Positions 10,691 through 50,865 of a stretch of 64,000 nt of DNA are shown here, one piece after another. The notes beneath the pieces were generated by a model. It did not search any database, was not told the DNA's origin, and saw nothing but the letters and a program-made list of their open reading frames with translations. The DNA comes from Stegostoma tigrinum (taxonomy: Eukaryota), in contig NC_081366.1 in the NCBI RefSeq assembly GCF_030684315.1, forward strand, positions 45,980,078-46,044,077, given 5' to 3'. The translations under genes were made by a program, and so were the position numbers. Position 1 is the first letter of the stretch. The number at the start of each line of letters is the position of its first letter.

Positions 10691-11789
10691 TATTGATGGA
10701 TTGCAGTAAATGGAGCTGAGATGTACATTGTTCTAAGCAAATGGCTTGTGAGGCTAAATAGCCTATTAGTTGAACTTGTTAAAGTTATAGAACTGGGGCT
10801 TCTGATTCAGTGTGCCTACTTCAGTTTGTTATAACATCTCTGAACAATTGGAAAATATCTAAAATATAGGATTGGACTTCTTACACCATTTAAACTCAGA
10901 AGTAAAATGACATTTAAGAGGCAAGAAATATAGTCCAATTGAGACTTCATCAGGCCCCTCTTAAAATGCTACAAGTTGAGCGATGAGAAATTGGAACTGT
11001 GCATGGGTAAATGTGCACATGGCATATGCAGGGCTTGCTCCTGACACTAACCTAAGTTTGTGGTCTGCAAGCCTAACATTAGTACTGTTGTCCGAATGCT
11101 GCTTCAGTCATCATGTTTTGAGGACTGGTAAATTTGGATGTCATCCAAGTAAAGAGAGTCTCTGGAGCCATTAAAGTTATTCCACTTGGCAAGGGGGATC
11201 CACATTGCTCTCCATGTTCTTTTAAGTGTACACTTAATTTGTTTCTTCTACCACCCTTTTGGACAGTAGGTACTAAGTCTGGTACCACTACCTGTATTAT
11301 AGGTTTGGTCCTGTCATTCTGTCCGTTCATCCAAAATTTTGTTTCCTCATCCTTGTACTATTTGCAAACTTTGGCAGCATCTGTGGAGACAAGTTTATAA
11401 ACTTGAGTTGATAAAGAGTCACTGCATTTTTTTTTGTTTCCGCCCCTGTCACCATAGGTTCTGCTAGATATGTGTTTCTCCAGCTCTTTGTTTCAAGTTT
11501 CCAGCTGATTTCCCCCTCAATTTGTACACTTTTTTTAAGACCATTTGAAATGGCAATTTAGTAATAAAATCAACACTAGCAGAGGGATATCTTGTCTGCA
11601 ACTGTTTTTCCTCTCCCACCTCAAAGCTATGCTTTTGTTTGAAAGCATAAACTGTTTTTGTATTATACTATTTCAATGAATTTGCATTGGATGGAAATGA
11701 GACAAACCACCATGAATTTTTAAAATTACACTGTTTCTAAAGACCAGCTGCAAATATACAATGTTGTTTGCCAAGCACATTAGTCAGTG

Positions 11790-14684: not shown

Positions 14685-14851
14685 TTAGACGTTGCGCTTC
14701 AGTGCAGTAGCTACCACACCCACCAGGATAGCAGCAACAGTGAAACCTTGGGCAAAGATACGTGCTCGCATTAATAGCTGAGATTGTCGTGTCTTGCCAC
14801 GTTTAAAGGCGATCAGACCATAAGTAAGAGCACCTGCTGTGCCTAACATTC
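14685..14851 (-). CDS. HIGD2A: HIG1 hypoxia-inducible domain family member 2A, exon 2 (last coding exon)
   Basis: Polypyrimidine tract + AG at 14853-14852. (G)MLGTAGALTYGLIAFKRGKTRQSQLLMRARIFAQGFTVAAILVGVVATALKRNV* carries the HIG1 Q-x-x-M-R-x-R-x-x-A-Q motif. Phase 1 matches exon 1; total 312 nt = 103 aa + stop. Confidence 0.95.
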
Positions 14852-15787
14852 CTACAAAAAAGAAAGAGAAAAAAATTATCTTCAGACATGTTAAAAAATT
14901 AACTGGGGATTTCAAACTTTGTCTTCACGCACATGAATCCTTGGGAATTATACAAAGTTAAAACTGTGTTCCTATTAATTTTTAGAAATCTGACGTTATT
15001 AACTTCAACAGATCTTGCTTTTTTTAAAAAAAAATTTGGCTACACCAATAAGGCAGCCGTGCTAAAACATATTCTTTGTATTTAAATTCAGGAGATTTAC
15101 AAAGATGAATAACCAGCTAACCTCAAATTTATCTAAGCTTCTGGTGTGACTGTTTTGACACCTTGGCAATAGTTTACATTATTTTAAGATATAACTTCAC
15201 ACCATTTAAAGCATTTTCCAGAAATTATTCAATACTGCAGCATAACTGACCAATTCAGCCATTTCCACAGGAAAAAATAATGGAGCTGATGTGCTATGCG
15301 TGTACTTCCTATATAGTGTTTTCTAAGTGCCACAGGAAAGGCTTGTCAACAAAGTTCAAACCCATTAAATATAAAAAGAGACAATAGTAGTATGGATAGG
15401 AAGTTGGCTGAGTAACAGAAAACAGTGGTGAATAAAGCTTTTTAAAAAGAAGTGCCAGGAGAAACTCGGCAGTTTTGGAAACATTTGTAGAGAAAGTGTG
15501 TTAAGTCCAATACAACTTTTCAAAATGATTGTTTTCTGCCTGGAGGAAGGTTGGTTTAAACTGATGACCAAGAATTTTCTGCAAATGACTGAAAACCTGG
15601 ATGTATTGAGAATTAGCAGAAGTTTGTAATAGACAACACAAACATGGGTGCAGCAGGAGGGCAGCTTGCAAATGTGCTGCACAGAGGTATTAAGAAATGG
15701 ATTCTGGTAGGAAGAGCAATGTGACATTATAAAGGATGTTGCGGCTCAGAAGAGATGGAGGTGTATATACATGTTCTCTCTTCTCTC

Positions 15788-15825: not shown

Positions 15826-17175
15826 TGAAGACGGCAGGTTGGGGAAGTGGTTACTAATAAGGCATGTGGGATGTTAAGTACTTTGAAAACAAATGCATAC
15901 GGTATAAAAACACAGAAGTCAAGGTGAATCTTTATAACACACCATTTCAACTTCACTGGAGTAGCATGCAATTCTAGGCCCCATTTTGGAGGATGTGAAG
16001 CTATAGACGGTGCAGAAAATAATGAGATTATTTCAAGCTATGAGGTGACATGCATAGATTTAAAAAATGTTTGGGGCTATTCTCCTTGGAGAAGGTTGAA
16101 AAATGTGGTAGAAAGGGATAATGGGAACCACAGTTGCTGGAGAATCCAAGATAACAATGTGTGAAGCTGGATGAACACAGCAGGCCAAGCAGCATCTCGG
16201 GAGCACAAAAGCTGACGTTTCGGGCCTAGTCCCTTCAGAGAGGGAGATGGGGCGAGGGTTCTGGAATAAATAAGGAGAGAGGGGGAGGCAGACCGAAGAT
16301 GGAGAGAAAAGAAGATAGGTGGAGAGGAGAGTATAGGTGGGGAGGTAGGGAGGGGATAGGTCAGTCCAGGGAAGACGGACAGGTCAAGGAGGTGGGATGA
16401 GGTGAGTAGGTAGGAAATGGAGGTGCGGCTTGAGGTGGGAGGAAGGGATGGGTGAGAGGAAGAACAGGTTAGGGAGGCAGAGACAGGCTGGGCTGGTTTT
16501 GGGATGCTGTGGGGGGGGAAGGGGAGATTTTGAAGCTGGTGAAGTCCACATTGATACCATTGGGCTGCAGGGTTCCCAAACGGAATAGGAGTTGCTGTTC
16601 CTGCAACCTTCGGGTGGCATCATTGTGGCACTGCAGGAGGCCCATGATGGACATGTCGTCTAAAGAATGGTGTGGGGGGGGGGGGGGGGGGGGGGGGGGC
16701 GGGGGGAGAGTTAAAATGGTTCGCGACTGGGAGGTGCAGTTGTTCATTGCGAACCGAGCGGAGGTGTTCTGCAAAGCGGTCCCCAAGCCTCCGCTTGGTT
16801 TCCCCAACGTAGAGGATGCCACACCCAGTACAATGGATACAGTATACCACATTGGCAGAATGTGCAGGTGAACCTCTGCTTGATATGGAACGTCATCTTG
16901 GGGCCTGGGATGGGGGTGAGGGAGGAGGTGCGGGGGCAAGTGTAGCACTTCCTGCGGTTGCAGGGGAAGGTGCCAGGTGTGGTGGGGTTGGAGGGGAGTA
17001 GGGAGCGAACAAGGGAGTCACAGGGAGAGTGGTCCCTCCGGAAGGCATACAAGGGTGGGGATGAAAAAATGTCTTGGGTGGTGGGGTTGATTGTAGATGG
17101 CGGAAGTGTTGGAGGATGATGCGTTGTATCCGGAGGTTGGTGGGGTGGTGTGAGAGAACGAAGGGCATCCTCGTG

Positions 17176-18616
17176 TCTCAGCCTGTTCCTGCCCCACCGA
17201 ACTCATCTCCACCTATCGGGACTCCATTTTCTCCCCTTTGGTCCAGGAACTCCCTACCTACGTCCGTGACACCACCCACGCCCTCCACCTCCTCCAGAAC
17301 TTCCAATTCCCTGGACGCCAACACCTCATTTTCACCATGGACGACCAGTCCCTATACACCTGTATTCCTCAAGCAGATGGCCTCAAGCCCCTCCACTTCT
17401 TCCTGTCCCGCAGGGCTGACCAGTCCCCCTCCACCGACACCCTCATCTGCCTAGCCGAACTCGTCCTCACCCTCAACTTCTCTTTCGATTCCTCCCACTT
17501 CCTACAGACAAAGGGGGTGGCCATGGGCATCTGCATGGGCCCAAGCTATGCCTGCCTCTTTGTAGGTTACGTGGAACAGTCCCTCTTCCACACCTACACA
17601 GGCCCCAAACCCTACCTCTTCCTCTGTTACATTGATGACTGTATCGGCGCCGCCTCTTGCTCCCCAGAGAAGCTCGAACAGTTCATCCACTTCACCAACA
17701 CCTTCCACCCCAACCTCAAGTTCACATGGGCCATCTCCATCACATCCCTCACCTTCCTGGACCCCTCAGTCTCCATCTCAGGTAACCAACTAGAAACTGA
17801 TGTCCATTTCAAGCCCACCGACTCCCACAGCTACCCAGAATACACCTCCTCCCACCCACCCTCCTGCAAAAATTCCATTCCCTATTCCCAATTCCTCCGC
17901 CTCCGCCACATCTGCTCCCAGGATGCGGCATTCCACTCCCGCACATCCCAGATGTCCAAGTTCTTCAAGGACCGCAACTTTCCCCCCCACAGTGGTCAAG
18001 AACGCCCTTGACCGCGTCTCCCACATTTCCCGCAACACATCCCTCACACCCCGCCCCCACAACAACCACCCCAAGAGGATCCCCCTCGTTCTCACACACC
18101 GCCCCACCAACCTCCGGATACAACGCATCATCCTCCGACACTTCCGCCATCTACAATCCGACCCCACTACCCAAGACATTTTTCCATCCCCACCCTTGTA
18201 TGCCTTCCAGAGAGGCCACTCTCCCTGTGACTCCCTTGTTCGCTCCACACTCCCCTCAACCCACCACACCTGGCACCTTCCCCTGCCACCGCAGGAAGTG
18301 CTACACTTGCCCCCACACCACCTCCCTCACCCCCATCCCAGGCCCCAAGATGGCTTTCCATATTAAGCAGAGGTTCACCTGCACATCTGCCAATGTGGTA
18401 TACTGTATCCATTGTACTGGGTGTGGCTTCTTTTACGTTGGGGAAACCAAGCGGAGGCTTGGGGACCGCTTTGCAGAACACCTCCGCTCGGTTCGTAATA
18501 AACAACTGCACCTCCCAGTCGCGAACTATTTAACTCCCCCCTCCCATTCTTTAGACGACATGTCCATCATGGGCCTCCTGCAGTGCCACAATGATGCCAC
18601 CCAAAGGTTGCAGTAG
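17176..18616 (+). pseudogene. 5'-truncated, frameshifted PLE RT + GIY-YIG endonuclease ORF
   Basis: RT motifs LIFTMDDQSLYT, QTKGVAMG-MGPSYACLF, YIDD, FLD, KPTDSHSY; linker PCHRRKCYTC; GIY-YIG FTCTSANVVYCIHCTGCGFFYVGETKRRLGDRFAEH. Spread over three frames (ORFs 17238, 17800, 18008) with an in-frame stop at 18614. Confidence 0.9.
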
Positions 18617-19050
18617 CAGCAACTCATATTCCGCTTGCGAACCCTGCAGCCCAATGGTATCAGTGTGGACTTCACAAGCTTCAACATCTCCCCTTCCCCC
18701 ACCGCATCCCAAAACTAGCCCAGTTCGTCCCCTCCCCCCACTGCATCACACAACCAGCCCAGCTCATCCCCTCCCCCCAATGCATCCCAAAACCAGCCCA
18801 GCCCGTCTCTGCCTCCCCAACCTGTTCTTCCTCTCGCCCATCCCTTCCTTCCACGTCAAGCCGCACCTCCATTTCCTACCTACTAAACTCATCCCACCTC
18901 CCTGACCTGTCCGTCTTCACCACACTGACCTACCCCCTCCTGACCTCCCCACCTATACTCTCCTCTCCACCTATCTTCTTTTCTCTCCATCTTTGGTCCG
19001 CCTCACTCCCTCTCCCTATTTATTCAAGAACCCTCTCCCCATTCCCCTCT

Positions 19051-19078
19051 CTGATGAAGGGACTAGGCCCGAAACGTC
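19051..19078 (+). ncRNA. Minimal hammerhead ribozyme motif, intact core (antisense to HIGD2A)
   Basis: CTGATGA-A-GGGACTAGGCCC-GAAAC-GTC. Confidence 0.75.
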
Positions 19079-19199
19079 AGCTTTTGTGCTCCCGAGATGC
19101 TGCTTGGCCTGCTGTGTTCATCCAGCTTCACACTTTATTCTCTTGAAAAATGTGGTAGTTTTGTTCAGATTAGTGAGGGGTTTAGATTGAGTTAGTAAG

Positions 19200-20530
19200 A
19201 CCATAAGAAATAGAAACAGAAACAGGAGTAGGCCATTTGGTTCCATAAGCCTTCTCCTCTATTCAATAGCATTGCACCTTATCCAACATTCCTCACAACC
19301 ACTATCCTCTAGGTTTTCCCTGTAATGCTCGATTCCTCTGCTGATCCACAATCTAACTATCTCATCCTTAAACATACACAAGGACACTATCTCCCTTCCT
19401 CCCCCAGCCCACCCCCACAGTTCTGTGGCAAGGAGTTCCAAAGACACACAACCCTCCGAAGGAATTCATCTTCATCTCAGTTTTAAACTAGCACTCCAAG
19501 ATTCTGAGACCATGCCCTCTGGTCCTAGGCTCCCCATCAGGGAAACATCTCAGCATTACCCTGTAAAGCCACCTAAGAATCCTGTACATTTGAATGAGAT
19601 CATTCCCCATTCTTCCAAATTATAAATGGATCCCAACTGTTCATACCTTGCTCGTTAGACAATCCATTCATACTGAGGATCATCCTAGTGAACTGTTTCT
19701 GAACTGCGTCCAATGAAATATCTTTCCTTAAAAAAATGGATCAAAACTACTGCAGATGTGGTCTCACCAGCACTCGTGCAGTTAGACTTGACTTCTCTAA
19801 CTCTTTAAATGATGGGCCAATTCCATTAGCCTTCCTGATAATCTTCTGCACCTATATGCTAATTTTCTGTGTAGTGCACAAGTGCCCCCAAGTCCCTTTG
19901 TGTTGCAGCTTTCTGCAATTTTTCTATTTAAACAGTACTGTTTTTTGTTCTCTTCCAAAAAGAAGAACTGCACGTTTTCCCACATTATACTTGACTTGCC
20001 AACATTTTGCCCACTCAATTTACCAACATCTATTTGTAAATAGTTAGTTTCAGCACTGATCCATGAGGAACACCACTGGTTACAGATTGCCAAATCTGAA
20101 AAAGAACCTCTAAACTCCATGCAGTTTCCTGTCTCTGCGCCAATTCGCTAACCATGCCAGTGTCCTACTCTGGACTCTTGGTATTTGATAAGACCAATCC
20201 TTTCTGGAAGTTCAAATGCAACACATCTACTGGTTCCCCTCTATCCAGTCTGGTTGAGACTGCTTCAAAAAAAGTCTTAAGTTTGTCAGACATGACTTCC
20301 ATTTCGCGAAGATGTGCCAAATCTGCTTGTTTAAGATTATAGTTTTCCAAGTGTGCTGCTGATACTTCCTTAATAAATGATTCCAACATTTTTCCAATAA
20401 AAGATGTTAGGCTAATTGGACTATAATTTTTGCCTCCCTTTTTGAATAGGCACATCACTGACACTTTTCCAGAATCCAAGGAATTTTGAAAAATTACAAC
20501 TCACGTAACTTTATCTCTGTATCTACATTT
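19200..20530 (-). mobile_element. Degenerate CR1/L2-type LINE fragment
   Basis: ORF 20165-20479 LFKKGG-NYSPISLTSFIGKMLES...FFEAVSTRLDRGEPVDVLHLNFQK is a CR1-type RT N-terminal region. Confidence 0.8.
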
Positions 20531-21214
20531 TTAAAGGTTCTAGCAAGAAACTGTTTTATAGAATACAGCATGGAAACAGATCCTTCAAACTCGTCCATGC
20601 TGACCAGATATCCTAAATAAATCTAGGTCTTTGGCCCATGTCCCTTTAAACCCTACCTATTCATAAAAACAAACATACAGATGCCTTTTAAATGTTCTAA
20701 GTGTACCAGTCTCTACACCTCTGACAGCTCATTTAGTACACGCACGACAATGTGTGAAAAAGTTGCAACTTAGGTCCCCTTTTAAATCTTTCCCCTCTCA
20801 CCTGAAACCTATATCCTCTCTGTCCTGAAACCAGTCCTAAGGCGATTGGCAAAAGAACTAGATGTGACATGAGAAGCCAGTGGTTAGGATCTGGAAGACA
20901 TCTTGAAAAGGTGGTAGAGACATGGTTTTCAAGGGGAAAATGTACATCTGAAAATAAAAACTGCAGAATGTAGTTAGTGGAGTGGAGGTAGCTGAGTTAG
21001 TTATAAGTAGTCCAGAAGTAGACATAACAGACTGCACAGTCACTGTCTTAAGGTGTAGTGAAACTGTGTTGTACAATAGGTTTTGTGAAATAGATTGTAG
21101 TGCCCCATTGTTGCACATTGCCCAAGTTTGACCTCTACAAGTAATTTTGATACATTACCATTTTCTTTATTGCCCAACAAAACTAAAGACCATCACAAAA
21201 TAAATTCACTAGTA

Positions 21215-21384
21215 ACAAAAACAAAGTTGCTGGAAAAGCTCAGCAGGTCTGAGGACCCTCCTCAGAATCACCAGACCCAAAATATTAACTCTGCCTTCTC
21301 CTTCACAGATGTTGCCAGACCGGAATTTTTCAGCGACTTTGTTTTTGTTCCTGATTTACAGCATCCGTAGTTCTTTCAGTTTTT
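21215..21384. mobile_element. Miniature PLE family-B fold-back remnant
   Basis: aacaaaaacaaagttgctggaaaagctcagcaggtctg is inverted relative to cagaccggaatttttcagcgactttgtttttgtt; imperfect flanking duplication ataaattcactagta / ataaatttagtagca. Confidence 0.6.
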
Positions 21385-21677
21385 ATAAATTTAGTAGCAT
21401 ATGGATAAGTGGCAATACTTTAAGACCATTCAGCCTGATTAAGCTAACCAATGTGATACAAGTCAGAACCTCAAATCGAAACAATATCACTGTCATTTTT
21501 AGATAAATGACTATCACAAACTTCTTTCTCATCACAGGCGCTACCAGACCTAATGAGTTACTCTAGCAATTTCTGTTTTTGTTTCAGATTTCCAGCATCT
21601 GCAGTTCTTTGATTTATTAAACTGTTGGAGAAATTCAGCAAGACTGGTAGTAGCTGTGATGAGAGAAACAAATTAGT

Positions 21678-21949
21678 CTGGATGAGAGTTTGCTCGCTGA
21701 GCCGGAAGGTTAGTTTTCAGACGTTTCGTCACCATTCTAGGTAAAATCATCAGTCAGCCTCCGACAAAGCGCTGGTGTTATGTTCGGCTTTCTATTTATC
21801 TGTTTAGATATGTTGTTATGTGATATTCTATGTTATCTGATGATGTTACCTAGAATGGTGACGAAACATCTGAAAACTAACCTTCCAGCTCAGCGAGCAA
21901 ACTCATATCCAGAACGTCAACCTGAGCTACAAATCTTCTCAAAACTCAC
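21678..21949. mobile_element. Miniature PLE family-C fold-back with two inverted hammerhead motifs, 12-bp TSD
   Basis: Arms 21678-21753 and 21837-21912 are inverted. Cores read CTGATGA-T-GTTACC-tagaat-GGTGAC-GAAAC-(G/A)TC. A 37-nt tail is present on the right arm only. AAACAAATTAGT at 21666-21677 and 21950-21961. Confidence 0.88.
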
Positions 21950-22359
21950 AAACAAATTAGTGTTTCAAGTGCAACGAGACACTTATTCCAAAGGGTCACC
22001 GACTCAAAACAGTAATGTTTCTCTCTTTACATGTGGTCAAACTTGCTGAGTTTCTATTTATGTAAGAAAATTTTGTTTCTTACTGGAGTACCTGCATTAA
22101 TGACCTTTATAAATGTTTTTCAAAATAAAAACTTACAGCAGTTTTCATTTATATTCAGTATACAGCAAAAGACTCGCATATATTTAAGAAGTTCCAAAGT
22201 CAACATGTTTTTACCATTTGAATTGCATAAGGCACACAAAGAAAGGTTAAATTCAACACGTAATGAGCAGTATTCATCTTTATGCTCCAACAACCAACTT
22301 CAGTTCTACGTGTCCCGTCAAATATAGTTTAAAATAGAATCCAAAATGAATTCCAGTCT

Positions 22360-22492
22360 AAATGAGGAAGGCTCAGCCGACCCGAAACGTTAACTTTTTT
22401 TTCCTTCACAGATGCTAGTAGGCCTGTTGAGTTTTTCCAGCAACTTGTTTTTGTTCCTGATTTACAGCATCCGCAGTTCCTTCAGTTTTTAT
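22360..22492 (+). mobile_element. Solo PLE family-B 3' end (degenerate hammerhead)
   Basis: tgaggaaggctcagccgacccgaaacgttaact...gttcctgatttacagcatccgcagttc; homologous to 23997, 50760 and 60125. Confidence 0.75.
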
Positions 22493-22562
22493 CCACTCTA
22501 AATCACCCCTGATCCAATCGCTGTCAGCTCGACGCCGTGCTCTAAACGCTTGTGGCACTTAC

Positions 22563-22707
22563 CGATTGGAACGAACGGGTTTTCTTTCGTCTTCCTAATA
22601 AACTTCTCTTGAAATCCTTCCTCCTTGAGTTTGGGTAACGGAGTAAAGCCCTCGACATCCGGAGGCTTCGTCAAATCGAGTACCGAGGCTGCAGAAAACG
22701 ACTTCAT
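22563..22707 (-). CDS. HIGD2A: HIGD2A exon 1 (coding part)
   Basis: ATG at 22707-22705; MKSFSAASVLDLTKPPDVEGFTPLPKLKEEGFQEKFIRKTKENPFVPI-G; donor G|GTAAGT at 22562. EKFxRKTxENPxVPIG is the HIGD2A signature. Confidence 0.93.
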
Positions 22708-23187
22708 CACTAGATCACTCCTCAAAGCCAGGAGCAATATCACGTGACCAGAACCATGGTGGGGTGGGGCCCAGTCTGAATGACGGTTAAAAAATACGGG
22801 CCCCTGCTCTCTAAAAACGGGTGGGTCTTATCTGTGATTGACAGTTGGCGGATGGAACGTTCCAAAGGGCGGGACCCATGCCTGTAATTGACAGCCAATA
22901 CAAACCAACCCCATTGAAGGGTGGGGCCTCCGTCTGTGATTGACAGCTAAAGCTATCCCGAATACACCCAAAGGTGACGTTTGTTACGTCTTCTAGTAGT
23001 CTTATCGCTAAACTATTTCATCAAAAATAGCATCAAGAGAACTAGTGGTCAGATTGTAAATAGGAATAAAATTTTTCATATTAATAAAGTAGAATTCAGG
23101 ACGAGGTTGGGGTTAGAGGGCAAACGTCAGAGTTCAGGTGGTGGGTGAGACGCGTGTTGCTGAGATCGCGTGGATAATTTCTGAAAG
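22708..23187. promoter_or_regulatory. Bidirectional promoter HIGD2A/NOP16 (CpG-enriched; E-box, repeated GC-box + TGATTGACAG, CCAAT, CRE-like site)
   Basis: Divergent ATGs 480 bp apart. TCACGTGAC 22740-22748; TGATTGACAG 22835 and 22937; TAATTGACAG 22885; CCAAT 22895; GGGYGGG boxes at 22762, 22819, 22867, 22919; TGACGT ~22975. Confidence 0.8.
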
Positions 23188-23293
23188 ATGCCGAAAGCAA
23201 AAGGGAAAAACAGGAGAAAAAGTTCGATTACAACTCCAATCGGAAAAAGCTCAAACGGAAGATGTTGAAGAAGGCGAGCCCGTTGATCGAGTG
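23188..23293 (+). CDS. NOP16: NOP16 nucleolar protein, exon 1 (apparent 1-nt frameshift at the A-run 23217-23221)
   Basis: ATG CCG AAA GCA AAA GGG AAA AAC AGG AGA (MPKAKGKNRR), then in a shifted frame KFDYNSNRKKLKRKMLKKASPLIE-C; donor TG|GTAAGT at 23294. Confidence 0.88.
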
Positions 23294-23996
23294 GTAAGTG
23301 TAAGAGACGCTGGGGCTCAGTCTTTGCTCCCCACAGAAATCTTGTCAACCACTCAATCTGAAATGGTTGGTGATGGTTTATTAAAAGCCATTACCGGGTA
23401 TTAGTTTAATTTTATTGAGATTTTACCTCCTCCCTCGTGTTTTTCTTGTGTTGGGTTGCCACTTATTTCTGTTTGAACTGATACCACGTTGTTAAAGGTG
23501 CCATGTTTGAATCAGGTGATATAGAAAAGTAGGGCATTTTCCAGTGTGAGGTAGACCGGGTTTTAAATCAATAACGGAATCGAGGGTTCTGTGGAAAAGG
23601 CAGGAAAGTAGAGTTCAGGATTATCAGATCAGCCTCTATCCATTGAAGGCCAGAACAGATACGATCGACCGAATTGTCGACTTTTGCTCCTATATCTTCG
23701 ATACTAAACTTGTTCATGGGATGTGTGCATTGCTGACTCAGAAGGCCCTTTATATTGTCATTCCCTTCATCCAATTTGCGGTGGATCTGGAAAAAGTAGA
23801 TTTGCTTCCCCAAATGATGTTGGTGAAACAGGCGATTCTGTAGTGTCCTACTCATTACTCAGAAGGCCACCGAGCTTTTAAAAGGACGGAAGGGATATGT
23901 ATATGTGGTTGGGGCAAAAGGAATTTAGGACGTGTAAAAACAATGGGAGGAGGCTCATGGCAAGTGTAAATAAATGTTCTGTAAAATCGATTTAAA

Positions 23997-24128
23997 ACAG
24001 TTTTGAGGAAGGGTCACCGGACCCGAAACATTAACTCTTTCTCCTCCACAGATGTTGCCAGACCTGCTGAGCTTTTCCAACTTTGTTTTTGTTCCTGATT
24101 TACAGCATCCACAATTCTTTTGGTTTTT
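23997..24128 (+). mobile_element. Solo PLE family-B 3' end (mutated hammerhead)
   Basis: cagtt-TTGAGGA-agggtcaccggaccc-GAAAC-ATT-aact: stem I agtt/aact, core C3>U and GUU>AUU. Confidence 0.8.
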
Positions 24129-25447
24129 AAAATACAAAATCAATCCGTTACCTCGGCTATGTTCCAATCATTTGTATTCTGATTGTGTGGTGTTACAGTA
24201 AGCGCCCTATTTTCTGCAAATTGCCTGTTTCATCTAACAAAAACCTCCACTGTCTTGTTCTCCCTTAATACCACTGCTTCATGTCAGTCTAAATTATTTG
24301 CTCAAATCTTGCATCATATCCAGGCAATGCAGACTGTGCAGAATTGGGGAACTAAACTGATGGCTAAATTCAGACGTTAAGTTATGAAGTGGTGTTGAAG
24401 TCTGTGGAGTTGCTTATTTTGTCTGAAATGATTAGATTAAGTTTTAATCAAGATTGCTAAGGAACAGAAAATTGGATAATACTGCATATTTAAAATTGAC
24501 ATAAATTTCAGACTGAAGCATTTAGATTTAACTACCCGATATAGAATGTGGAATTGTGGGGCAGATGTTCTTTTTCTCGAGTACTGGGCCTGAAGGCAGG
24601 TCCTTTAGGGTTATTTCCTGAATCATAGCTAAATGCTGTAGTATTTTAGTACAGGTGGGGTGGGGAAATAGGCCTCAAGTCAACTTCCACCAGAACAGGG
24701 ATTCAACATTGTGCTGTTGGTACTAATCTGATTTTGACATGCCAGCAGCCTAGTTATCCAGGGCCCTTAGAAACATTAGAACTAGAAGCAGGAGTAGGTC
24801 ATTTGGCTCCTCAAGCCAACTCCACCATTTAAAACAATCATGGATAATCTAATTTCAGCCTCAACTTCACTTTCCTGCCTGTTTTCCATGATCCTTCAAC
24901 CCATTAATAATTTGTTTTGCTCCTCCATAAATTTACCCAATGCTCCAGAAAACACCACACTCTGTGGTAATGAATTCCATGGATTTACGACCATTCAAGA
25001 GAAGGAATTTCTGTCCTCTTTAAAATTACCTACCCCTTACCCTAAAACTGGCCTCTTGTTCTAGATTGCTGCACAAGAGCGTGCATCATCTCCACATCAA
25101 CTTTGTCAATCCCCTTTAGTGTCTTGTATATCTCAATTAAAGACAAATGTTGTGGGGGAAATATAGTAACGAAAAAAGATATTTGTGCACAGAATTGACG
25201 TAGCTTTGCAACAGGCTGTTTAAATTTCAGCACTGCCTGGTGCTGTACATTCTTGCCATGATTAATAAAATGTTCACTCTTACAAATATGATAAATTATC
25301 CTGTTGTAATGCTAATTTGCAGTAATTGCCAAATTATTTTGTTGGAATGTCCGAGATAATATTCTTTTGTGACAAGTCACACGGGTGTTGACAAGCATTT
25401 GTTTAATAATTGAGAAAAAAATGTCTAATTCAATTTTTTTTATGAAG

Positions 25448-25556
25448 TGCACAGATGAGAAAAGTATGGGACGACAAGAAATCAGTTGCTCAGAATCTAG
25501 CTGACATGGGTTTGGCATCTGACCCAAACTGTGCAGTTCCCATTAAGAAGAACAAG
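25448..25556 (+). CDS. NOP16: NOP16 exon 2
   Basis: T-rich tract + AAG acceptor; (C)AQMRKVWDDKKSVAQNLADMGLASDPNCAVPIKKNK; GT donor at 25557; 109 nt, phase 2 to 0. Confidence 0.93.
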
Positions 25557-28500
25557 GTGTGTACAACTGTGATTCTGTTTTAAAGCTAAGGACAATTATA
25601 CCATGAAATGCAGTGACAAAAATAGTCCATTCAACCTATCGTATCTGCTATCTAATATAGTATATTTATTGTTATGTGTAGTTATGAAAATACAGTAAAC
25701 ACATTATCTGTATCCCTCTGCAGACTGTCTATCGTCCTCAGCACTTCCACTCATTTATTTGTGTTATCTGCAAACTTGGCAATAATACATTCACTTTCTT
25801 TATCCAAGTCATTGTTATGTATTGTAAATAATTGTGACCACAGCACTAATCCCCATGGAACCCTGCTAGTTACAGGTTGCCATCCTGAAAATGCCCCAAT
25901 GCCATCTATCCGTGCTCATACTCTACCTCCAACACCATGCGCTCTTGTGTTATTAAATAAACTAATCAAACGCCTTCTGGAAGTCCAAATATATTATATC
26001 CACTGCTTCTCCTTTATCTATCTTACTTAAAAAAAATTCTAAGTTGTTAAACATGATTTCTCCTTAGTAAAGGTATTCTGACTCTGCTGTTATATATTTC
26101 TAAATGCTCTGCCATTACATCCTTTCATTGTGACATGGAGACAGACAACCAAAGCACATTAGTCTATAGAGATTGTAGGAGAAAGGTCTAGACCCCAAAC
26201 ATCAGCTTTCCTGCTCCTCTGATGCTGCTTGGCCTACTGTGTTTATCTGGCTCGACACCTTGTTATCTGACATCAGACTACCCCTGTATTTGCAACATAG
26301 TAAAATTGAGACTTTCAAAGACCCTCAGAATTGACCCCAACGGTTCCTAATCAGACTTTTGAATAACTAATTTGATACTTTGCAAATAAACAATTCCAGC
26401 CACTTGTTTGTATCTCAAACAAAAAAGGTAGCAATTTATTAACAATAATAGTAACTTCAAGCAACAAAGTAGTCTAACTGGTCTAACCTACAGATTCAAA
26501 AACATTTATCTTTTGTGTGAATGGTGCTGAAAACAGACAAACAACAGTTAAGAGATAAAAGAAACCAACAAACCTGGCAAGATTACTTCAATGGCTTTCA
26601 CGATGCATTGTTCCACAGGCACTAATGATGGTTACTCGGTTGAATTTTCTGAAGATGTAGGTCAGGGTCACCTTGAATAGTTCACTCAAAAAAGATAGTA
26701 ATACAGTACTTATGACTTAATTTTCTATTCTGAGCTTCCAAGAACTGCAAATGAGAGGCTAAGCAGGGAGTTTCAAATCTCGTGCTGTAAGCATCAGCAG
26801 CAAAATTTATTTTTCCCTGAAAGTACAAAATCCAAAAATTGAAAACCCCCCAATTCACACTCCAACCACTTCAACAGACTGATCATCTCCTCCAAGATGT
26901 CCCAGTTAACATTTAACATGTGCCATCTTCTTGGCAATAACGTCTTTTCTAGACTTGCTGGGACCAAATGTACTGACCTCATTGCTAGCTACATTCTGCT
27001 ATCTGTTTGAACATAATGCTCTTCCCTGGTGATGGTGTCTTCTGAACCTTTTGACAGGGACCAACCTGCAATTAACTTCCAGGCCTGGCCTCACAAATAA
27101 ACAAAAGCTCGATTTGGTCTGTTTTCCTTCTATCATATGCTGCTGCCCACAGTCCAAAATCTTTAGCTTTATCTTTAGCTCATAGTTCCAAACTAAAACT
27201 GATAAAAGAATAAAATAAATGAAAAATCAGTGCGGGTTCTAACATGCCTCCATCCTTTCTGTAAAAAAGGAATTCCATGACAAGGTTAGTAATACTTAAA
27301 TAACAAACAAAACTCAGCTATTCATTCTTGCTCCCCCCAGAATCTTAATCACTATTCAACTTCCTTGATCATATCCTCAAATTTACAACAGTTTAGGACA
27401 AGTTATCAGCAATTGCATTTCTTTCGTGGAAATATGTATAAGTTTTATGTTAAAATGCTGCAGATCTAAGCTCCATCTGAACAATCTTAGAGTCTTAAAT
27501 TTTTTAATTTATCAGTAAAAGTCAGTGGATTGTGAATTGTAAACGCCATAGTTTCAAAGCTCCCATGTAGAGCATAAACTTTGAAACGTTAAAGAGCTTC
27601 TATCATAGCTAGTGCTTCCTTTAAAATACCACGTCCAAGACGATTTCCAACCTTTTTCAAAAGTTAGCTATGGGCTTCTCCATTCCAGCCTCGTCATCCT
27701 GTAAGAGAACTGCTTCATTCCCCAAATTGCTAACATCTACTGCTAATTTAAATAGTTTGTCAGAGTCAGGTGCAGCTAACACACATTCATTTGTTAAAAT
27801 TGTTTTTAACTTTTCGAAAGCTTTCTGGTCACATCATTTTACATTTTTTTTGAAGCAAATTAGTCATTATTGTACTAAAATTCAGTACAAACTTCTGATA
27901 AAATCTCTACATTCCCAAGAACCATATTATCTTGCATTTTATTTGTCAATTAAGAAAGTCAGTTAAGGCTTTTACTTTTGCCATTTTGGGTGACGCCTGC
28001 CCATGTCGTACAACACGTCCTACAGTATATCGCCTTGGCTTTTAGTAATTCACCTTTTGCTAGATCTAACATCAACTCGGCTGACTTCTATATTACTTCC
28101 GTGTGGTACTAAGTACTATGATGCGATACAAGTAAACTGAACAATGAAGTACTTCAACCATAACAGATTTCATTAATCTTTGTAGTATGGCTGGGGCATT
28201 CTTAAATACAAATGGCATAACCCAACGTTGTACAATCCATTAGAAATGACAAATGTGGTAATTTCCTGAGCTGTCTTTTACAGTACTTGCCAATGTCTTT
28301 CAGCAAATCAATTTTAGATCAGAAAGGTGCGATATAAATCCTATCAATGCAATCCCTAGTATGGGAATAGGTTATGAATTCACTTTTGTGACTGCATTCA
28401 CTTTCCTGTAATATACATACAATCGAAGTGAACCATCTGATTTAGAAACCAATATTATGGGAGAACTTCAATTACTCTGGCTTGGTTCAATCAATTGATT

Positions 28501-28604
28501 CTCCAATATGTATTGAGTTTCCTTTATTACTTTTTTGGGATTTTGTGGGTTTAACCAAAATGGTTTTTATTTTATTGTGTCTGAACTATGAATATTGATG
28601 TTCA

Positions 28605-29790
28605 AGATAACCAAGTGTGAAGCTGGATGAACACAGCAGGCCAAGCAGCATCTCAGGAGCACAAAAGCTGACGTTTCGGGCCTAGACCCTTCATCAGAGA
28701 GGGGGATGGGAAGAGGCAACTGGAAAAAATAGGGAGAGAGGGGAGGCGGACCGAAGATGGAGAGAAAAGAAGATAGGTAGAGAGGAGAGAGGTCAGTCCA
28801 GGGAAGACGGACAGGTCAAGGAGGCAGGATGAGGTGGTAGGTAGGAAATGGAGGTGCGGCTTGAGGTGGGAGGAAGGGATGGGTGAGAGGAAGAACAGGT
28901 TAGGGAAGCAGTGACAGGCTGGGCTGGTTCTGGGATGCAGTGGGGGCAGGGGACGAGCTGGGCTGGTTTTGGGATGCAGTAGGGGAAGGGGAGATTTTGA
29001 AGCTTGTGAAATCCATGTTGATACCATTGGGCTGCAGGGTTGCCCCGGTGTGGCTTCCTCTACATTGAGGAAACCAAGCGGAGGCTTGGGGACTGCTTTG
29101 CAGAACACCTCCGCTCGGTTCGCAACAAACAACTGCACCACCCGGTCGTGAACCATTTCAACTCTCTCTCCCCCCCCCCCCCCCCCCCCCCCCCCCCATT
29201 CCTCAGACGATATGTCCATCATGGGCCTCCTGCAGCGCCACAATGATGCCACCCGAAGGTTGCAGGAACAGCAACTCATATTCCGCTTGGGAACCCTACA
29301 GCCTAATGGTATCAATGTGGACTTCACAAGCTTCAAAATCTCCCCTTCCCCCACTGCATACCAAAACCAGCCCAGTTCTTCGTCTCCCCCCACTGCATCC
29401 CAAAACCAGCCCAGCCTGTCTTTGCGTCCCTAACCTGTTCTTCCTCTCACCCATCCCTTCCTCCCACCTCAAGCCGCACCTCCATTTCCTACCTACCACC
29501 TCATCCCGCCTCCTTGACCTGTCCATCTTCCCTGGACTGACCTATCCCCTCCCTACCTCCTCACCTATACTCTCCTCTCTACCTATCTTCTTTTCTCTCC
29601 ATCTTCGGTCCGCCTCCCCCTCTCTCCATTTATTTCAGTTCTCTCTTCCCATCCCCCTCTCTGAAGGGTCTAGGCCCAAAACGTCAGCTTTTGTGCTCCT
29701 GAGATGCTGCTTGGCCTGCTGTGTTCATCCAGCTCCACACTTTGTTATCTTGGATTCTCCAGCATCTGCAGTTCCCATTATCACTGATAC
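28605..29790. mobile_element. Penelope-like element (family A), inverted fold-back insertion, 14-bp TSD
   Basis: Left arm 28605-~29041 (-), right arm ~29043-29790 (+, GIY-YIG C-terminus CGFLYIEETKRRLGDCFAEH). AATATTGATGTTCA at 28591-28604 and 29791-29804; tail on the right arm only. Confidence 0.92.
28670..28697 (-). ncRNA. Minimal hammerhead ribozyme motif, intact core (antisense to NOP16)
   Basis: Minus strand CUGAUGA-A-GGGUCUAGGCCC-GAAAC-GUC. Confidence 0.75.
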
Positions 29791-32700
29791 AATATTGATG
29801 TTCAGTTCAGTTAATGTGATACGTCCAAGTGTATCCTTTGCAAATACAGTTGTATTTTCTGAGCAACCTACTGTATCTTTCAGTCTTTCTCCAGATACAA
29901 AAATACAGTGATTGAATTCTCTAATATCCAATCCTTGTAATCAAATAATCTATTCTTGGTAAATTATCTTTTCCTCCTTGGCTGTCATCCTTGTTTTACA
30001 CCCTCCTCTACCACCCTAACTACTTCACTCACCTGTACATTCTCTTCTTCTTCTCTACAATAGCTGAGTGGTGTCACTATCTGATGCACAACCAACCATT
30101 CTTCATCGGTAGGTCTATGAAGACAGCACTTTGTTCTTAAGACAAGAACACCTTCGGCTTCTAACTCATTATGAGCTGACTGAGCTATAATTCAGGATTT
30201 GTTTTCTGTGCTGCAATTGGGGACATAGTACCAAACACTCCACTTGGATTGTCTTCACTGTTTAGGAAGGTTTCAGCTATCCTTTCGCTTGCTTGTGATG
30301 TCACATCAACCCTTATTCACAGATTTTGTTTGACTCTGGTTACTGCACACGAAGGAAATATATCAGGAACCTGTTCCTGTAATTGTTCTGTTTCTTGTGC
30401 CTCCTTTGGGCATTCTGTGATTATGGATGAAGCTGCTACCTTTAGTCCTGCTAAATCATTACCCAGACGGAACACTTTTACTACTCCAAGAATTGTTTCT
30501 CCAGCTAAATCCTATTCCATTTGTACTGTACATCATGGAACTGGGATATATTTTTCACCAATCTTGTTTACTTAGCTCCCATTGAACTCCAGAGGGAAAA
30601 TCAAGTCTTTTTCCAACAGAAGTAATTGATTTGCCCATGTACCTCTTGGTATGGTTATAGGTTTAGCTACCACACCTGAAGAAAAAGGAGTCACCTTTTT
30701 TTTTCATCAAAAATCCTGCATACTTCTTATCTGTCGTACACATTTCTTTACGAATAACTGAATTTACCTCTGGCCTTTTCATTATAGTTAGAGCTAAAGC
30801 CTGGTCTGTGGTGTCTTTGTGTTCCTTTCTCCCTTCTCATTTTATTCCTTTAAGTCCTTCTTCACAATTTCCAAAATTCTGAACACATGGACCAACTTAT
30901 TACAGTAGAAACATTTAAGATTCTGAACTTCACCTCCACCCTCGGCAATTTCCTTATTATTCTGAAGAGGAGTTCTTGGGGCATGCCCTCTGTTCATTCT
31001 CTACCTGCCTTCCTTTCACTCTCTTTATCTTGTTTTATTCTTCTCAAATTTCTGGAAGGATGTGAAAAACAATGTTTCATGGTTTGGTTCATAATCTTCA
31101 GCCATTGTAGCAGCTTATTTTGCCGTTGGTACCCTTTGGTCTTCTACATGAGTTCTGATTATGAAAAGTAAGAAAATTCTGAATTCTTCAAAAAGAATAA
31201 TTTCTCTGAGAGCACAGTAGCTATTCTCATCCTTTAATGCTCTTGTCCAACCATCAAAATTCTTCCCTGGTGACAAATTGTCAGCAGAAACTTATCTGAA
31301 ATTAACTTCTGTGGTCTGTTTTCCTTTTAACACAAGCTGTTAAATATAGTCCAGAGAGTCATTTTTACCTCGCGGTTTTCAGTTTTCAGCTCCAAACCAA
31401 AATGGACAAAAGAATAAAGTTAAAATAATGAAAAATCAGTGAGGGCTCAAAGCTACATGATCTATAATTAATTTTGTAAACCTCTTCCCTTTCTAAATAA
31501 AGGTATTACATTAGCAGTTTTCAAATCCTTTGGGACTTCTCTACAATCTACAGACTAATGGAGGCCTACTGCCTGTGATACACCATCTCGGTAGTTCCTT
31601 CTTTGAATATGCTATCATGCATCCTATCAGGTTTGGAGGACTTACTGATCTTCAACCTGATTAGTTTCCACAGTACCTTTTAATCAGGTGATAATTATTG
31701 TGTTTGTTTCTCTCCCCTTTTTACCCTTTGATTATTTAATAATTTTGGAATGCTATTAGCATCTTCTACTTGAAGCTTAGTGCAAAATGTTTATTTAACT
31801 CTTCTGTCATTTCCACTTTCTTCATTATTATTTCGTCAGCCTCATTCTCTAAGCGGCCTATGTCTACTTTGGCCTGTCTCTTCCTTTTTATACATTTAAA
31901 GAAGCTCTTACCATCTTATCTGATTTACCTATTCATTGAAATACTCCTGATATCTTTGTAGTGCGCATAAAATGTGCACATCATGCCTTGATGACCTGTC
32001 TATGTAACCTACTTAGTGACTTATTACTTGTCCTTAAGATGAAAAAAGTCTTCTAAGCTACAATCTCCTGTTTATGTTGCTCATTTTTGAGTGCCTGACA
32101 CTTAGGGATTGGCTGGATGGCTGATTCACACTGCAGAATGACATCAACAACGAAGGATCAATTTTTGTACTGGCCGAAGTCATGAGGGCTTCACCTGCTC
32201 AACCTCTCCCTTGCCAGGGGTACGGTGACTATCAGGAAAAACTCACCACCAGTCATCATCTCTCTAAAGAAAATAATTTTTGTTCTCTGGGACCGTCATG
32301 ACTTACAAATTACTTTCCATAGTATGAAGATGGGAATAAAATTGTGACACTACTGCAAAACTAGAGGAGATGGTGAGAGATCTTTTTTAAAAGGTCAGTA
32401 AGAGGTTGAGGATCAGACTAGCCCAGGTTTTTAGTAAATGAATGTTGAAGTATTTCAGGGCAGTTACCACTCTTTCCTGGGGCTTACTACAATTTTCCCT
32501 TGGCCACCCCATGAAACAGCTATAGTACAAGTCCACTGGCAGCAGATTCACTGAGGAGCTGGGCCTTTCTGCTGTCAACATTTTATGCAGAATATATTTA
32601 TGATGTTGGTATGAGCAGCAGATAGAGAAATGTAGATCAGCCATATAGTGGTAGGCATGACCGTCAGAAGTTTGTATTTTTCTTTCTTTGAAGCTATCCT

Positions 32701-33006
32701 GTCAACTTTCAGGGGAAGATGATAAGCAGATAATCAAGGTAGTTTCCCTCATCTGTATTCCCAACAACTCTGCCACATTGTCGAAAGAATTGCAAAATGA
32801 GAACACTTTTTTTTAAACTAGCTTCTCCACTCCATGAGGACAGTTACACCAGCTCCACTTAAGGATAATGGAAATATCCCACTTTCTCTAGGCTTCAGTG
32901 ATTGTTGGTTGATTCATGAGTTACTTTTAACAGAAACAAAATAACTGCTTCTAATGCTATTCCATTCCATGTGAACAGCTAGTTTAGTGGATAATCTTGT
33001 TTCAAG

Positions 33007-33115
33007 GATAGGAGGAACTGCTGATGCTGGAGAATCTGAGATAACAAGGTGTGGAGCTGAATGCTCCTCTGCTGCTTGACCTGCCGTGTTCATCCAGCTC
33101 TACACCTTGTTATCT
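33007..33115. mobile_element. Miniature family-A-related fold-back remnant
   Basis: agataacaaggtgtggagctgaatg is inverted relative to catccagctctacaccttgttatct; tail on the left; ttagtggat(a/t)atct at 32984-32997 and 33115-33128. Confidence 0.65.
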
Positions 33116-33726
33116 TAGTGGATTATCTGTCATTTTTTTAAACTCCCCCAAGCCAGTGCATATCAGTGCACATGGAAGATTTGTTCTTTTCTCTTGCCAG
33201 CCCTTTGTTTGTGACATAACTGTTTTACGATATGAAATATTGGTTGACTGAAGCTGGATTGTGGCTTTACCTGGCTTGTACATGTTATGAGAGCTAAATC
33301 TTGGTGAAAGTCTTGTCTTTAAAGTGGTTCTATGGAAATGTCCTTCTAAGTGCAGCTAGGCAGACTTGCTTTTCAGTTTTTAAACTGTGATCCTCAGTTA
33401 GTGCTGACTTGGTTCAGTTACAAAAACTTCTGCCTCTGGGTTGATTGCAGTAATTAAGTAAAATTCAATCTGCTTTTCCTGCTGTCCAGCAATTGTGAGA
33501 AATGCTGATCTGTCGTTAAGATTTCAAACCAGGCCTCTACCTGCCAGTTGGGATGGCTCCTCAAGGACCCATGACACAGTTCAAGGAACCTGAGAACTCC
33601 TTTCACCTATCCAAAATTTATACATGAGTAGACATTGTCCAACACAAGTAACTAGTCATTCATCTCATTTGGTTTTGTGGATATTTTTTGTCTGCAAATT
33701 AGCGGTGACTTTCACCTATGTTAATG

Positions 33727-34507
33727 CAGGTATTTCTGCTATAACACATGCTTCGTTAACACGATTTGGCTGTAATGCGATTGAATGGTGGATATTGTTT
33801 GGATAATGCCAATGTTCTACTGTATAGTGTAGCGATTTTCCTATAACGTGATTTTCTATTCAATCAATCATAGAATCCCTATAGTGTGGAAACAGGTCCT
33901 TCGGCCCAACGAATCCACACTTATCCTCAGAGCATCCCACCCAGAACCATTCCCATATAACCCACCTAATCTACACATCCCTGAACACTATGGGCAATTT
34001 AGCAAGGCCAGTCCACCTAGCCTGCACATCTTTAGACTGTGGGAGGAAACCAGAGCGTCCAGAGGAAACCCACGCTGACACGGGGAGGTTGTGCAAATGC
34101 CACACACACAGTTGCCGAGGGTGGAATCGAACCCGGGTCCCTGGCTAGGTGAAGCAGCAGTACTGACCACTGAGCCACCGTGCCATCCAAAAATGCCATC
34201 TCTCTTGGAATGCGGGATGTTGGGGCCATATGTACATAGCAAGATCCCACCAAAAGCAATGCAAGAGTGACCTGTTTATGGGTGATACGGAATCAGTGTT
34301 AAATGCTGGTCAGGAAAGACCCTGGGGATATCTCCATTGTTCTTTAAACACAAACACCCCTGAAACATTCACATGCAGCTGAGAGGGCAGTTGCAGTCTC
34401 AGTTAGTAACATCTTGACTGAAATGCAGCCCCTCAGTACTCACCCCCCCAACAGTTTGCACGAGGTTGCACAAGAACACAACTATTGTGTTATAGGAGAA
34501 ATACCTG
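33727..34507. mobile_element. Non-autonomous Tc1/mariner (pogo/Tigger-like) MITE with nested SINEs
   Basis: 22-bp TIRs CAGGTATTTCT(G/C)CTATAACACA at 33727-33748 and 34486-34507; TA on the right flank, TG on the left. Confidence 0.7.
33861..34188 (-). mobile_element. tRNA-derived SINE (HE1/V-SINE-like), well preserved
   Basis: Minus-strand A box TGGCTCAGTGG and B box GGTTCGATTCC; CR1-like 3' tail ending in (TGAT)n. Confidence 0.85.
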
Positions 34508-34652
34508 TACTATCTAACTTGATCCCAATAACTTAAAACCTTGTGCTTGCTTATGTTTAAATCACAGTTTGTCCGATCTGAATTTTGTGAATCTGCATAT
34601 AGTGACATTGTGCAAGTTAATCTTAGTTGCCTCTGTTTCATTTGTTTTACAG

Positions 34653-34719
34653 CAGTATAAAATGAAAACAGCGTTGATAAATAGAAAACCAGTCGTTATT
34701 AAGCCATATGTAATCAATG
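34653..34719 (+). CDS. NOP16: NOP16 exon 3
   Basis: ttttacAG|CAG acceptor; QYKMKTALINRKPVVIKPYVIN-(E); donor G|GT at 34720; KPYV motif; phase 0 to 1. Confidence 0.85.
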
Positions 34720-34889
34720 GTTTGTATTCAGTCGTCATTTTAGATATCTTTATCAGTCCTACTGTATCCTCACTTTGTTTTCTGCATTTCTTTACTTTTG
34801 CAACTGTTCATCATTTCATCAGGGAGGTTGGGACTGTTTCTGTATGAATTAAAGGATACAACTAAAAGATGCAAGAACATATGTTTTAT

Positions 34890-35209
34890 GAGGTTGTAGA
34901 AATGCTCACTGAGCCGGTGGGTTTGGTTGCAAACATTTTGTCACCCTACTAGGTAACATCGTCCATGTGCCTCTGATGAAGTGTCAATGTTCTATCCCGC
35001 TTGTTATTTATATGCCTCGGTTCACTGGGGTCGTTGACATTACTTCCGGTTTTGTTTCTTAGTGGTTTGTACACAGGGTCTAATTCAGTTCAACCAGAAG
35101 TGCACTGACATTGTTACCAAGCAGGTGAGAAAGCATTTGCAATCAAACTCACTGGCTTGGTGAGCATGTCTACAACCTCACCCATAACTCAAGCTACAAA
35201 TCTTCTCAA
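34890..35209. mobile_element. Older PLE family-C fold-back retaining the endonuclease C-terminus
   Basis: Inverted arms (gaggttgtaga...gtcaccctactaggtaac vs gttaccaagcaggtga...tctacaacctc); same tail as 21913-21949. Minus-strand ELDPVYKPLRNKTGSNV. Imperfect TSD aacatatgttttat / aacatgtattttat. Confidence 0.75.
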
Positions 35210-35259
35210 AACATGTATTTTATAGTTTCCATATTTTAGTGGTGTTCATACGTGGACAT

Positions 35260-50800: not shown

Positions 50801-50865
50801 GATTTTTCTTTACAGATGCTGCCAAGCCTGCTGAGCTTTTCCAGCAACGTCTGTTTCTGTTCCTA
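47830..50865 (+). mobile_element. Near full-length, decayed Penelope-like element (family B)
   Basis: N-terminal FHSHITFLSDCLRVRFTPNRFQLKF; RT FYLLPKILK, GRLIISACS, LLTMDMQSLY, GVAI-MGPSYA, TNIHYKPTDSHSYL; decayed endonuclease LPVACHFN; ends in a family-B hammerhead-like terminus at ~50763. Confidence 0.85.

Follow-up and report, generated by a model that had tools for sequence, protein, structure and literature searches.

The typical Penelope structure, also known from flies and fish, is an inverted arrangement of pseudo-long terminal repeats (pLTRs) that lies within a target-site duplication (TSD) and may have a tail on one of its arms (PMC3846280), and the same general scheme for Penelope-like elements (PLEs) appears in Figure 2 of PMC8557442. 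Pairs of hammerhead motifs on opposite strands, 100-700 bp apart, have been described as well (PMC4209133). Here we analyze six inverted PLE pairs, E1 to E6, in a 64-kb stretch of the Stegostoma tigrinum genome (contig NC_081366.1, positions 45,980,078 to 46,044,077), the whole of which is referred to as the window. As their layout was already described in these three papers, novelty of the layout is not supported; the insertions add a further case to a layout already in print, whose presence in a shark is therefore ordinary. A literature search directed at sharks brought up no paper with the structure of shark PLEs as its main subject, as judged from the listings.

The origin of the inverted pairs and of their one-sided tails is called unresolved in PMC8557442. 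With AT-rich DNA as its target, the protein of an anole Poseidon element cuts both strands and extends them, and it starts reverse transcription from two sites that bound the tail; the steps after the first priming were left unvalidated in that study (PMC11167929). Priming from both target nicks was named 'dual priming' as a speculation for L1 (PMC2837659). The available parts of PMC12910113, PMC8969392 and bioRxiv 10.64898/2026.07.22.740005 contained nothing on inverted short forms.

Structure of the six inverted pairs

A preliminary description of this DNA had listed six insertions in which two arms lie head to head with their 3' ends facing outward. All six pairs were present (Table 1). In a comparison of the window with itself, E1 and E4 were visible by their inverted arms, and the short pairs were found with profiles of the element termini. 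The list held in full but was incomplete, as two decayed pairs and 11 solo arms were added to it. One boundary had to be corrected: the left duplication of E5 ends at 32997, so that this element begins at 32998 and not at 33007. PLE insertions occupy ~9.4 kb, or 15% of the window, and the inverted outcome is common within it, as had been proposed, with six clear and two decayed pairs among ~19 events.

Direct duplications abutted both outer ends in 6/6 pairs, and their AT content was 69-86%. The duplications that had been claimed were exact in three pairs (E1, E3 and E4) and matched at 13/14 positions in E5, whereas those of E6 (12/14) and E2 (12/15) were weaker. When compared with 5000 random local site pairs, allowing a slop of ±3 nt and lengths of 8-20, the p values were 0 for E1, E4 and E5, 0.0002 for E3, 0.0018 for E6 and 0.0072 for E2. 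In a looser test with free positions, E2 was non-significant (p 0.13) and E6 was marginal (p 0.038). The one-sided terminal tail was confirmed in every case: exactly one arm of each pair carried it, with lengths of 38, 36, 37, 40, 41 and 30 nt in E1 to E6, an outcome with p 0.016 if each arm chose independently at 0.5.

Chance adjacent insertion had been named as an outcome that would speak against the preliminary reading. We placed the 27 arms found in the window at random in 200,000 trials. On average 0.046 abutting head-to-head pairs of one family resulted, and no trial reached four, compared with the six observed (eight with the decayed pairs). Chance adjacency is thus excluded within the window. 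Because one duplication encloses both arms, and because substitutions group the arms by insertion (see below), we conclude that each pair is a single integration event.

Table 1. Coordinates of PLE insertions and their flanking duplications in the window
Feature	Position	Strand	Details
E1 left TSD	16096..16111	+	16/16 with 19143-19158
E1 short arm, family A	16112..17175	-	38-nt tail 16112-16149, 3' untranslated region (UTR), GIY-YIG endonuclease fragment; hammerhead core minus 3 nt
E1 long arm, family A, untailed	17176..19142	+	5'-truncated reverse transcriptase (RT; YIDD), CxxC linker, GIY-YIG, 3' UTR, intact minimal hammerhead core
E1 right TSD	19143..19158	+	
E2 flanking 15-mers	21200-21214 / 21385-21399		12/15
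E2 untailed arm, family B	21215..21267	-	internal deletion of ~45 nt; extends just beyond hammerhead 5' edge
E2 tailed arm, family B	21268..21384	+	tail 21349-21384
E3 untailed arm, family C	21678..21836	-	alignable to ~21802; left TSD 21666-21677
E3 tailed arm, family C	21837..21949	+	begins at hammerhead core; tail 21913-21949; right TSD 21950-21961 (12/12)
E4 untailed arm, family A	28605..29044	-	hammerhead core intact; left TSD 28591-28604
E4 tailed arm, family A	29045..29790	+	begins within GIY-YIG; tail 29751-29790; right TSD 29791-29804 (14/14)
E5 tailed arm, family A variant	32998..33063	-	41-nt tail 32998-33038 plus 25 nt; left TSD 32984-32997
E5 untailed arm, 52 nt	33064..33115	+	right TSD 33115-33128 (13/14)
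E6 untailed arm, family C	34890..35096	-	encodes PLE-like endonuclease C-terminus; left TSD 34876-34889
E6 tailed arm, family C	35097..35209	+	tail 35180-35209; right TSD 35210-35223 (12/14)
Probable older family-B-like inverted pair, interrupted by E3	21620..22080		
Probable very decayed family-B-like inverted pair	11352..11530		about 11350-11530
Short solo arms (seven)	5095-5212, 7195-7321, 26181-26268, 62287-62375, 22363-22490, 24000-24128, 60128-60225		four tailed, three untailed
Decayed near-full-length Neptune-type PLE with family B terminus at end	47900..50862	+	start ~47900

Comparison of the arms

Substitutions at informative sites grouped the arms by insertion. For E1 and E4 the count was 7:0:0 in 401 columns, after one column at the alignment edge was dropped, and for E3 and E6 it was 15:1:0 in 75 columns. 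The two arms of E1 differed in 69/994 columns and those of E4 in 30/438.

The untailed arm extended further 5' in five of the six pairs (E1, E2, E3, E5 and E6), with the tail on the other arm. The reach of the untailed arm versus that of the tailed arm was 1967 versus 1026 nt in E1, at least 125 versus 76 nt in E3, 52 versus 25 nt in E5 and 207 versus 83 nt in E6, and the 5' ends of the E2 arms lay at -2 (untailed) versus +11 (tailed) relative to hammerhead position C3. Since each arm holds sequence that is absent from its partner, neither was copied from the other in these five pairs. We conclude that their two arms were separately templated. The exception was E4, in which the tailed arm is long and the short arm is nested. 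The E1 arms also differed in the number of minisatellite units (1 versus 3) and of private changes (7 versus 22, p 0.008, the long arm having more), as expected from two templates or from two tandem units. To look for these private variants in other shark copies, homologues were sought with the reading frame in the 3' UTR of the E1 long arm, which yielded 0/166 candidates.

All six inner junctions differed and none recurred in the window. Mobilization of the pairs as units, for which identical junctions at different loci would speak, is therefore not supported by this one window. Hairpin stems near the junctions were only 3-8 bp at best, including a 5-bp hairpin across the E5 junction and an 8-bp hairpin beside that of E2. 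By eye, the joined sequences shared a few bases at most (E4 and E5), and E3 contained a 34-nt stretch (21803-21836) that could not be aligned to the E6 arm.

We also noted by eye that, at the untailed ends of E1 to E6, the duplication opens in 6/6 cases with one to three bases identical to those with which the missing tail would begin. This match possibly reflects primer-template microhomology, and it is partly expected from the way in which the boundary is drawn.

Element identity and families

Pfam matches of E1 to RT and GIY-YIG had E values of 8e-5, 0.012 and 0.002, none of which attained the curated cut-off; the first of these is RVT_1 in the frame 17154-18008 and the other two are GIY-YIG. 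The open reading frame (ORF) of the long arm is disrupted by frameshifts and stops. Its RT fragment found 291 homologues (best E 2e-147), and the full-length homologues inspected carry RT plus GIY-YIG. The named proteins closest to it come from Chiloscyllium punctatum (73% and 71%) and, at 89% over 54% of the query, from Stegostoma tigrinum, which points to a carpet shark as the host; no named Neptune references were among the homologues. In the GIY-YIG signature of E1, VYCIHC..C...YVG, two cysteines lie between the motifs. A CX2-5CxxC linker is present in the E1 arms as CHRRKCYTC and CNRRKCYTC, in 77/81 of the homologues that have the endonuclease (EN) core and, as a decayed equivalent, in the long family B copy. 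The RT, the GIY-YIG domain, the minimal hammerhead near the 3' end, the tail and the inverted structure bear out the PLE origin of the insertions.

Three distinct families had been proposed. Family C (E3 and E6) is separate, whereas families A (E1, E4 and E5) and B (E2) are two related Neptune-type lineages, because their termini cross-hit at E ~1e-8 in terminus profiles and because the long family B copy aligns to the same proteins as E1. This copy is decayed, aligns through the EN region, and supplies the link of family B to an ORF with RT and GIY-YIG. Because E1 has the linker that serves as a mark of these clades (PMC8557442), families A and B are classified by motif as Neptune-type (or Nematis) PLEs.

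The longest family C arm encodes 45 C-terminal residues, which match two short, unnamed proteins at 73% identity. A Pfam search with this fragment gave no hit, the family A profile did not match it, and the Atlas provided a GIY-YIG lead at 0.84 only. Family C may be Poseidon-like. E3 and E6 belong to different subfamilies within it. Two predicted proteins, P0125 and P0126, combine HEAT/Arm and PDZ exons with sequence of family C; these fusions are probably gene-prediction errors in which intronic PLE arms were taken as exons.

The description of the insertions as retroelement derivatives that look like miniature transposable elements with inverted repeats (MITEs) holds for the four short ones (E2, E3, E5 and E6; 118-320 bp), and such forms invite misannotation as MITEs. 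An origin as class II MITEs was rejected on the basis of the asymmetric tail, the variable 12-16-bp duplications, the unique junctions and the continuity of the arms with RT/EN sequence. Non-LTR retrozymes were likewise rejected, as hammerhead-bearing arms were single or inverted in the window and never in direct tandem.

Hammerhead motifs and 5' ends

Only the right arm of E3 and one unrelated match came out of a strict scan for hammerheads on the two strands of the window, and Rfam at E up to 1 gave three weak matches, none to a hammerhead. The core pattern CTGANGA...GAAA was therefore read arm by arm in 20 arms. Predicted intact cores were found in 5/20: the right arm of E1, both arms of E3, the left arm of E4 and the solo arm at 7187. 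The better-preserved elements had been said to carry twin hammerheads; both cores are present in E3 only (1/6), while E1 and E4 have one each and E2, E5 and E6 have none intact. In these cores helix II is opened by a G-C pair, a bulged base precedes helix II, and a palindromic ACGT follows GAA. Opposite-strand cores of one pair could not both act as ribozymes in one transcript.

By alignment to long references, the 5' ends of all seven well-preserved short solos lay within -4 to +5 nt of C3. Arms of pairs also ended near C3: the left and right arms of E2 at the positions given above, the right arm of E3 at ~0 and the right arm of E6 at +7 by alignment (~-9 by eye). Altogether 11/20 arms end at the hammerhead 5' edge, or 12/27 when decayed arms are kept. 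The seven arms dropped from the count were decayed and B-like, with alignment scores <=34; one fits the cluster and six do not. The low-scoring left arms of E2 and E5 were kept, as the partner arm fixes their ends. With exponential truncation at means of 60-400 nt, 11/19 ends in a 25-nt interval had p <=9e-5, this interval having been chosen post hoc and the final count being n=20. By what we take to be the standard hammerhead numbering, self-cleavage is expected ~30 nt downstream of the cluster. Because of this offset, cleavage fits the clustered 5' ends less well than does a splice acceptor or run-off at an RNA 5' end. For Drosophila virilis, the 5' end of helix I is noted as the place where the intron ends (PMC4209133). 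With such a shared truncation point, uniform MITE-like sizes could arise anew, so that recurring junction positions alone would be no proof of unit mobilization.

Duplications were present at 6/6 clear pairs versus 1/8 testable better-preserved solos, the one probable 12-bp duplication being at 22363-22490 (11/12, p 0.012). Fisher's test gave p 0.0014 (6/6 versus 1/9) and 0.006 (6/8 versus 1/11); both counts include the long family B copy, for which the duplication test is invalid (left boundary 48800 versus a start at ~47900). When the solo flanks were examined within 6 kb for duplications in displaced or inverted position, there were only scattered 12/14 matches, of which the one at 22352 was the sole abutting one. 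Testing of the two decayed pairs detected no duplication. In the parts of the literature searched, we found no statement on the truncation clustering or on the contrast in TSDs between pairs and solos.

Mechanism of integration

Fold-back copying had been proposed as the mechanism. As the arms are non-nested in five of the six pairs, this proposal is probably wrong. Each pair is probably best explained by dual priming at both nicked target strands. The GIY-YIG endonuclease would nick both strands of an AT-rich site, with the nicks 12-16 bp apart, and both 3'-OH ends would prime reverse transcription of the element 3' end. Initiation at the downstream start site would yield the arm that retains the 30-41-nt tail, and initiation at the upstream site would yield the untailed arm. 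The inner ends of the two 5'-truncated cDNAs (the cDNA 5' ends) would be united by end-joining, and fill-in would create the TSD. MITE-like forms would arise anew at each insertion and would not be copied as units. Priming from two nicks, with one start site each and joined cDNA ends, would account for the signature of a single event, the two readings of the template and the one tail per pair. The anole Poseidon element provides a precedent for cleavage and extension on two strands, for a tail bounded by two RT start sites and for a predicted dimer (PMC11167929). We infer that both primings occur at one site in vivo and that the short arms stop where the RNA begins.

A bolder version, which we offer tentatively and consider doubtful, is that coupled dual priming is the normal clean route and is carried out by a protein dimer with one subunit per RT start site. 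Such a dimer would give one tail per pair and would leave duplications at pairs but hardly at solos. Many cDNAs would then be strong-stop-like run-offs that end at the hammerhead 5' edge, the MITE-like palindromes would be fresh products, and the solos would be repair patches or half-deleted pairs.

Several observations weigh against dual priming. The duplications of E2 and E6 are imperfect, the excess of longer untailed arms (5/6) is non-significant (p 0.11), and all of the evidence comes from six events in one 64-kb window. The biochemistry is that of a lizard Poseidon element, whereas families A and B are Neptune-type. The tailed arms of E1 and E4, which belong to different insertions, have in common an expanded poly-C and the loss of 3 nt from the hammerhead core, a grouping opposed to that of the substitutions; the C-rich stretch in the endonuclease ORF (16676-16705 and 29170-29197) has ~25-30 C in these two arms and is not expanded in the untailed arm of E1. 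These shared indels could reflect recurrent slippage or derivation of the tailed arms from a different tandem unit. Gene conversion between neighboring arms could also be the source of the grouping within insertions. Finally, self-priming on an antisense template was favored for rotifer elements with palindromic junctions (PMC3846280), and E4, with its tail on the long arm and its short arm nested, fits simple self-copying equally well. True fold-back, in which one cDNA or antisense RNA folds and copies itself into the second arm, would also agree with the variants common to both arms of an insertion and with the hairpins at the E5 and E2 junctions. However, each arm of the other five pairs has sequence that its partner lacks, the E1 arms are unlike in repeat-unit number and private changes, and the junctions are without long palindromes, their stems of 3-8 bp comparing with 18-38 bp in rotifers. 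We regard fold-back as rather unlikely.

It is also unlikely that the short inverted forms are non-autonomous retro-MITEs that were themselves copied to new sites. The size and strong folding of E2, E3, E5 and E6 would suit such units, and PLE machinery is able to move pLTR-flanked sequence in trans (PMC3846280), but the six junctions are unlike and without recurrence in the window, the two family C elements belong to different subfamilies, and equal sizes could arise afresh when 11/20 arms share one stopping place. A second, independent insertion directed to the first or to its side could be imagined because the anole enzyme has AT-rich cleavage sites close to the ORF-pLTR junction of its own element (PMC11167929), and the larger number of private changes on the E1 long arm looks as if that arm were older. 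A single duplication surrounds both arms in 6/6 pairs with none at the inner junction, random abutment is rare and the arms group by insertion, all of which make this origin very improbable. To an assembly artefact from chimeric fold-back reads we give almost no credence. Assembly indel errors may be present, as suggested by long homopolymer runs and by a one-base frame change described below, but near-identical mirror images would be expected from such reads, whereas the arms are diverged, asymmetric and enclosed by direct duplications. Dual priming remains our preferred explanation.

Neighboring features and significance

Pfam identified a clathrin light chain exon (2353-2583), an HIG_1_N exon on the minus strand (14688-14924) and Arf exons (46913-47266 and 57139-57405). 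We assume that the genes are CLTB, HIGD2A, NOP16 and ARL10; none of the four NOP16 exons was confirmed by Pfam. E1 to E3 are intronic, being bounded by the HIG_1_N exon on one side and by what is probably a first exon (~22560-22700) on the other. In the probable first exon of the presumed NOP16 (~23190-23290), a one-base frame change in an A-rich run suggests an assembly indel error.

Three decayed family-B-like arms (+, -, +) lie at 21462-22080; the first and the second adjoin tail-to-tail and have variants in common, and the second is interrupted by E3. Upstream of the long Neptune-type copy, a short fragment of the internal ORF is present in inverted orientation (47514-47648 versus 48703-48825, 70% identity). 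The untailed family A arm at 62287-62375 adjoins a 228-bp inverted duplication (62373-62600 and 63526-63753, 925 bp apart), whose arms are near-identical save for a central ~30 bp that is micro-inverted between them; a 12-bp hairpin lies at the other breakpoint (~63482-63520). The region 62287-63753 looks like an inversion inside a long interspersed nuclear element (LINE), which we take to be CR1-like, with a PLE patch at one break. Divergence between the 228-bp arms is much lower than in the PLE, which would be compatible with a recent event, with conversion or with an assembly error.

The interest of this locus lies mostly in testable patterns and less in the layout. Shark genomes hold these insertions densely, with clean duplications in place of microsatellite targets, so that a genome-wide tally would directly test dual priming versus self-priming. 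Long intronic hairpins such as E1 (1-kb arms, 93% identity) could serve as double-stranded RNA substrates.

Comparison with known systems

The shark pairs resemble Pen2a/Pen2 of Adineta vaga, in which an inverted 5'-truncated copy abuts the 5' end head-to-head within the TSD and an optional 30-40-bp tail is on one end only (PMC3846280). They differ from the rotifer PLEs in their duplications (12-16 bp versus 8-10 bp), in the lack of long palindromes at the junctions and in the small size of 4/6 pairs. The direct pLTR tandem of endonuclease-bearing (EN+) PLEs was not seen in the window. E1 resembles Neptune and Nematis in its C-terminal GIY-YIG domain with two cysteines between motifs and its upstream CX2-5CxxC linker, a likeness drawn from motifs; unlike in Nematis/Neptune, no microsatellite target was seen at the shark insertions.

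Cercyon-derived copies of Schistosoma share the minimal hammerhead near the 3' end, with its bulged base, the G-C pair opening helix II and ACGT, as well as the opposite-strand pairs 100-700 bp apart, most copies being single (PMC4209133); only 1/6 shark pairs keeps both cores, and for the Schistosoma copies we found no duplications, tails or truncation points described. MITEs are similarly short and non-coding, with terminal inverted repeats and a flanking duplication. The shark elements are unlike MITEs in their asymmetric tail, variable 12-16-bp duplication, RT/EN-continuous arms and unique junctions, and a high-copy uniform family is not shown. In L1 twin or dual priming, as in our preferred reading, both target nicks prime, the inverted product lies within the TSD and the inner ends are joined (PMC2837659). 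Twin priming uses non-overlapping parts of one RNA, whereas both shark arms carry the same 3' end. The hypothetical dual priming of L1 would give the same 3' end on both arms, which is the arrangement in the shark pairs, offset there by the tail.

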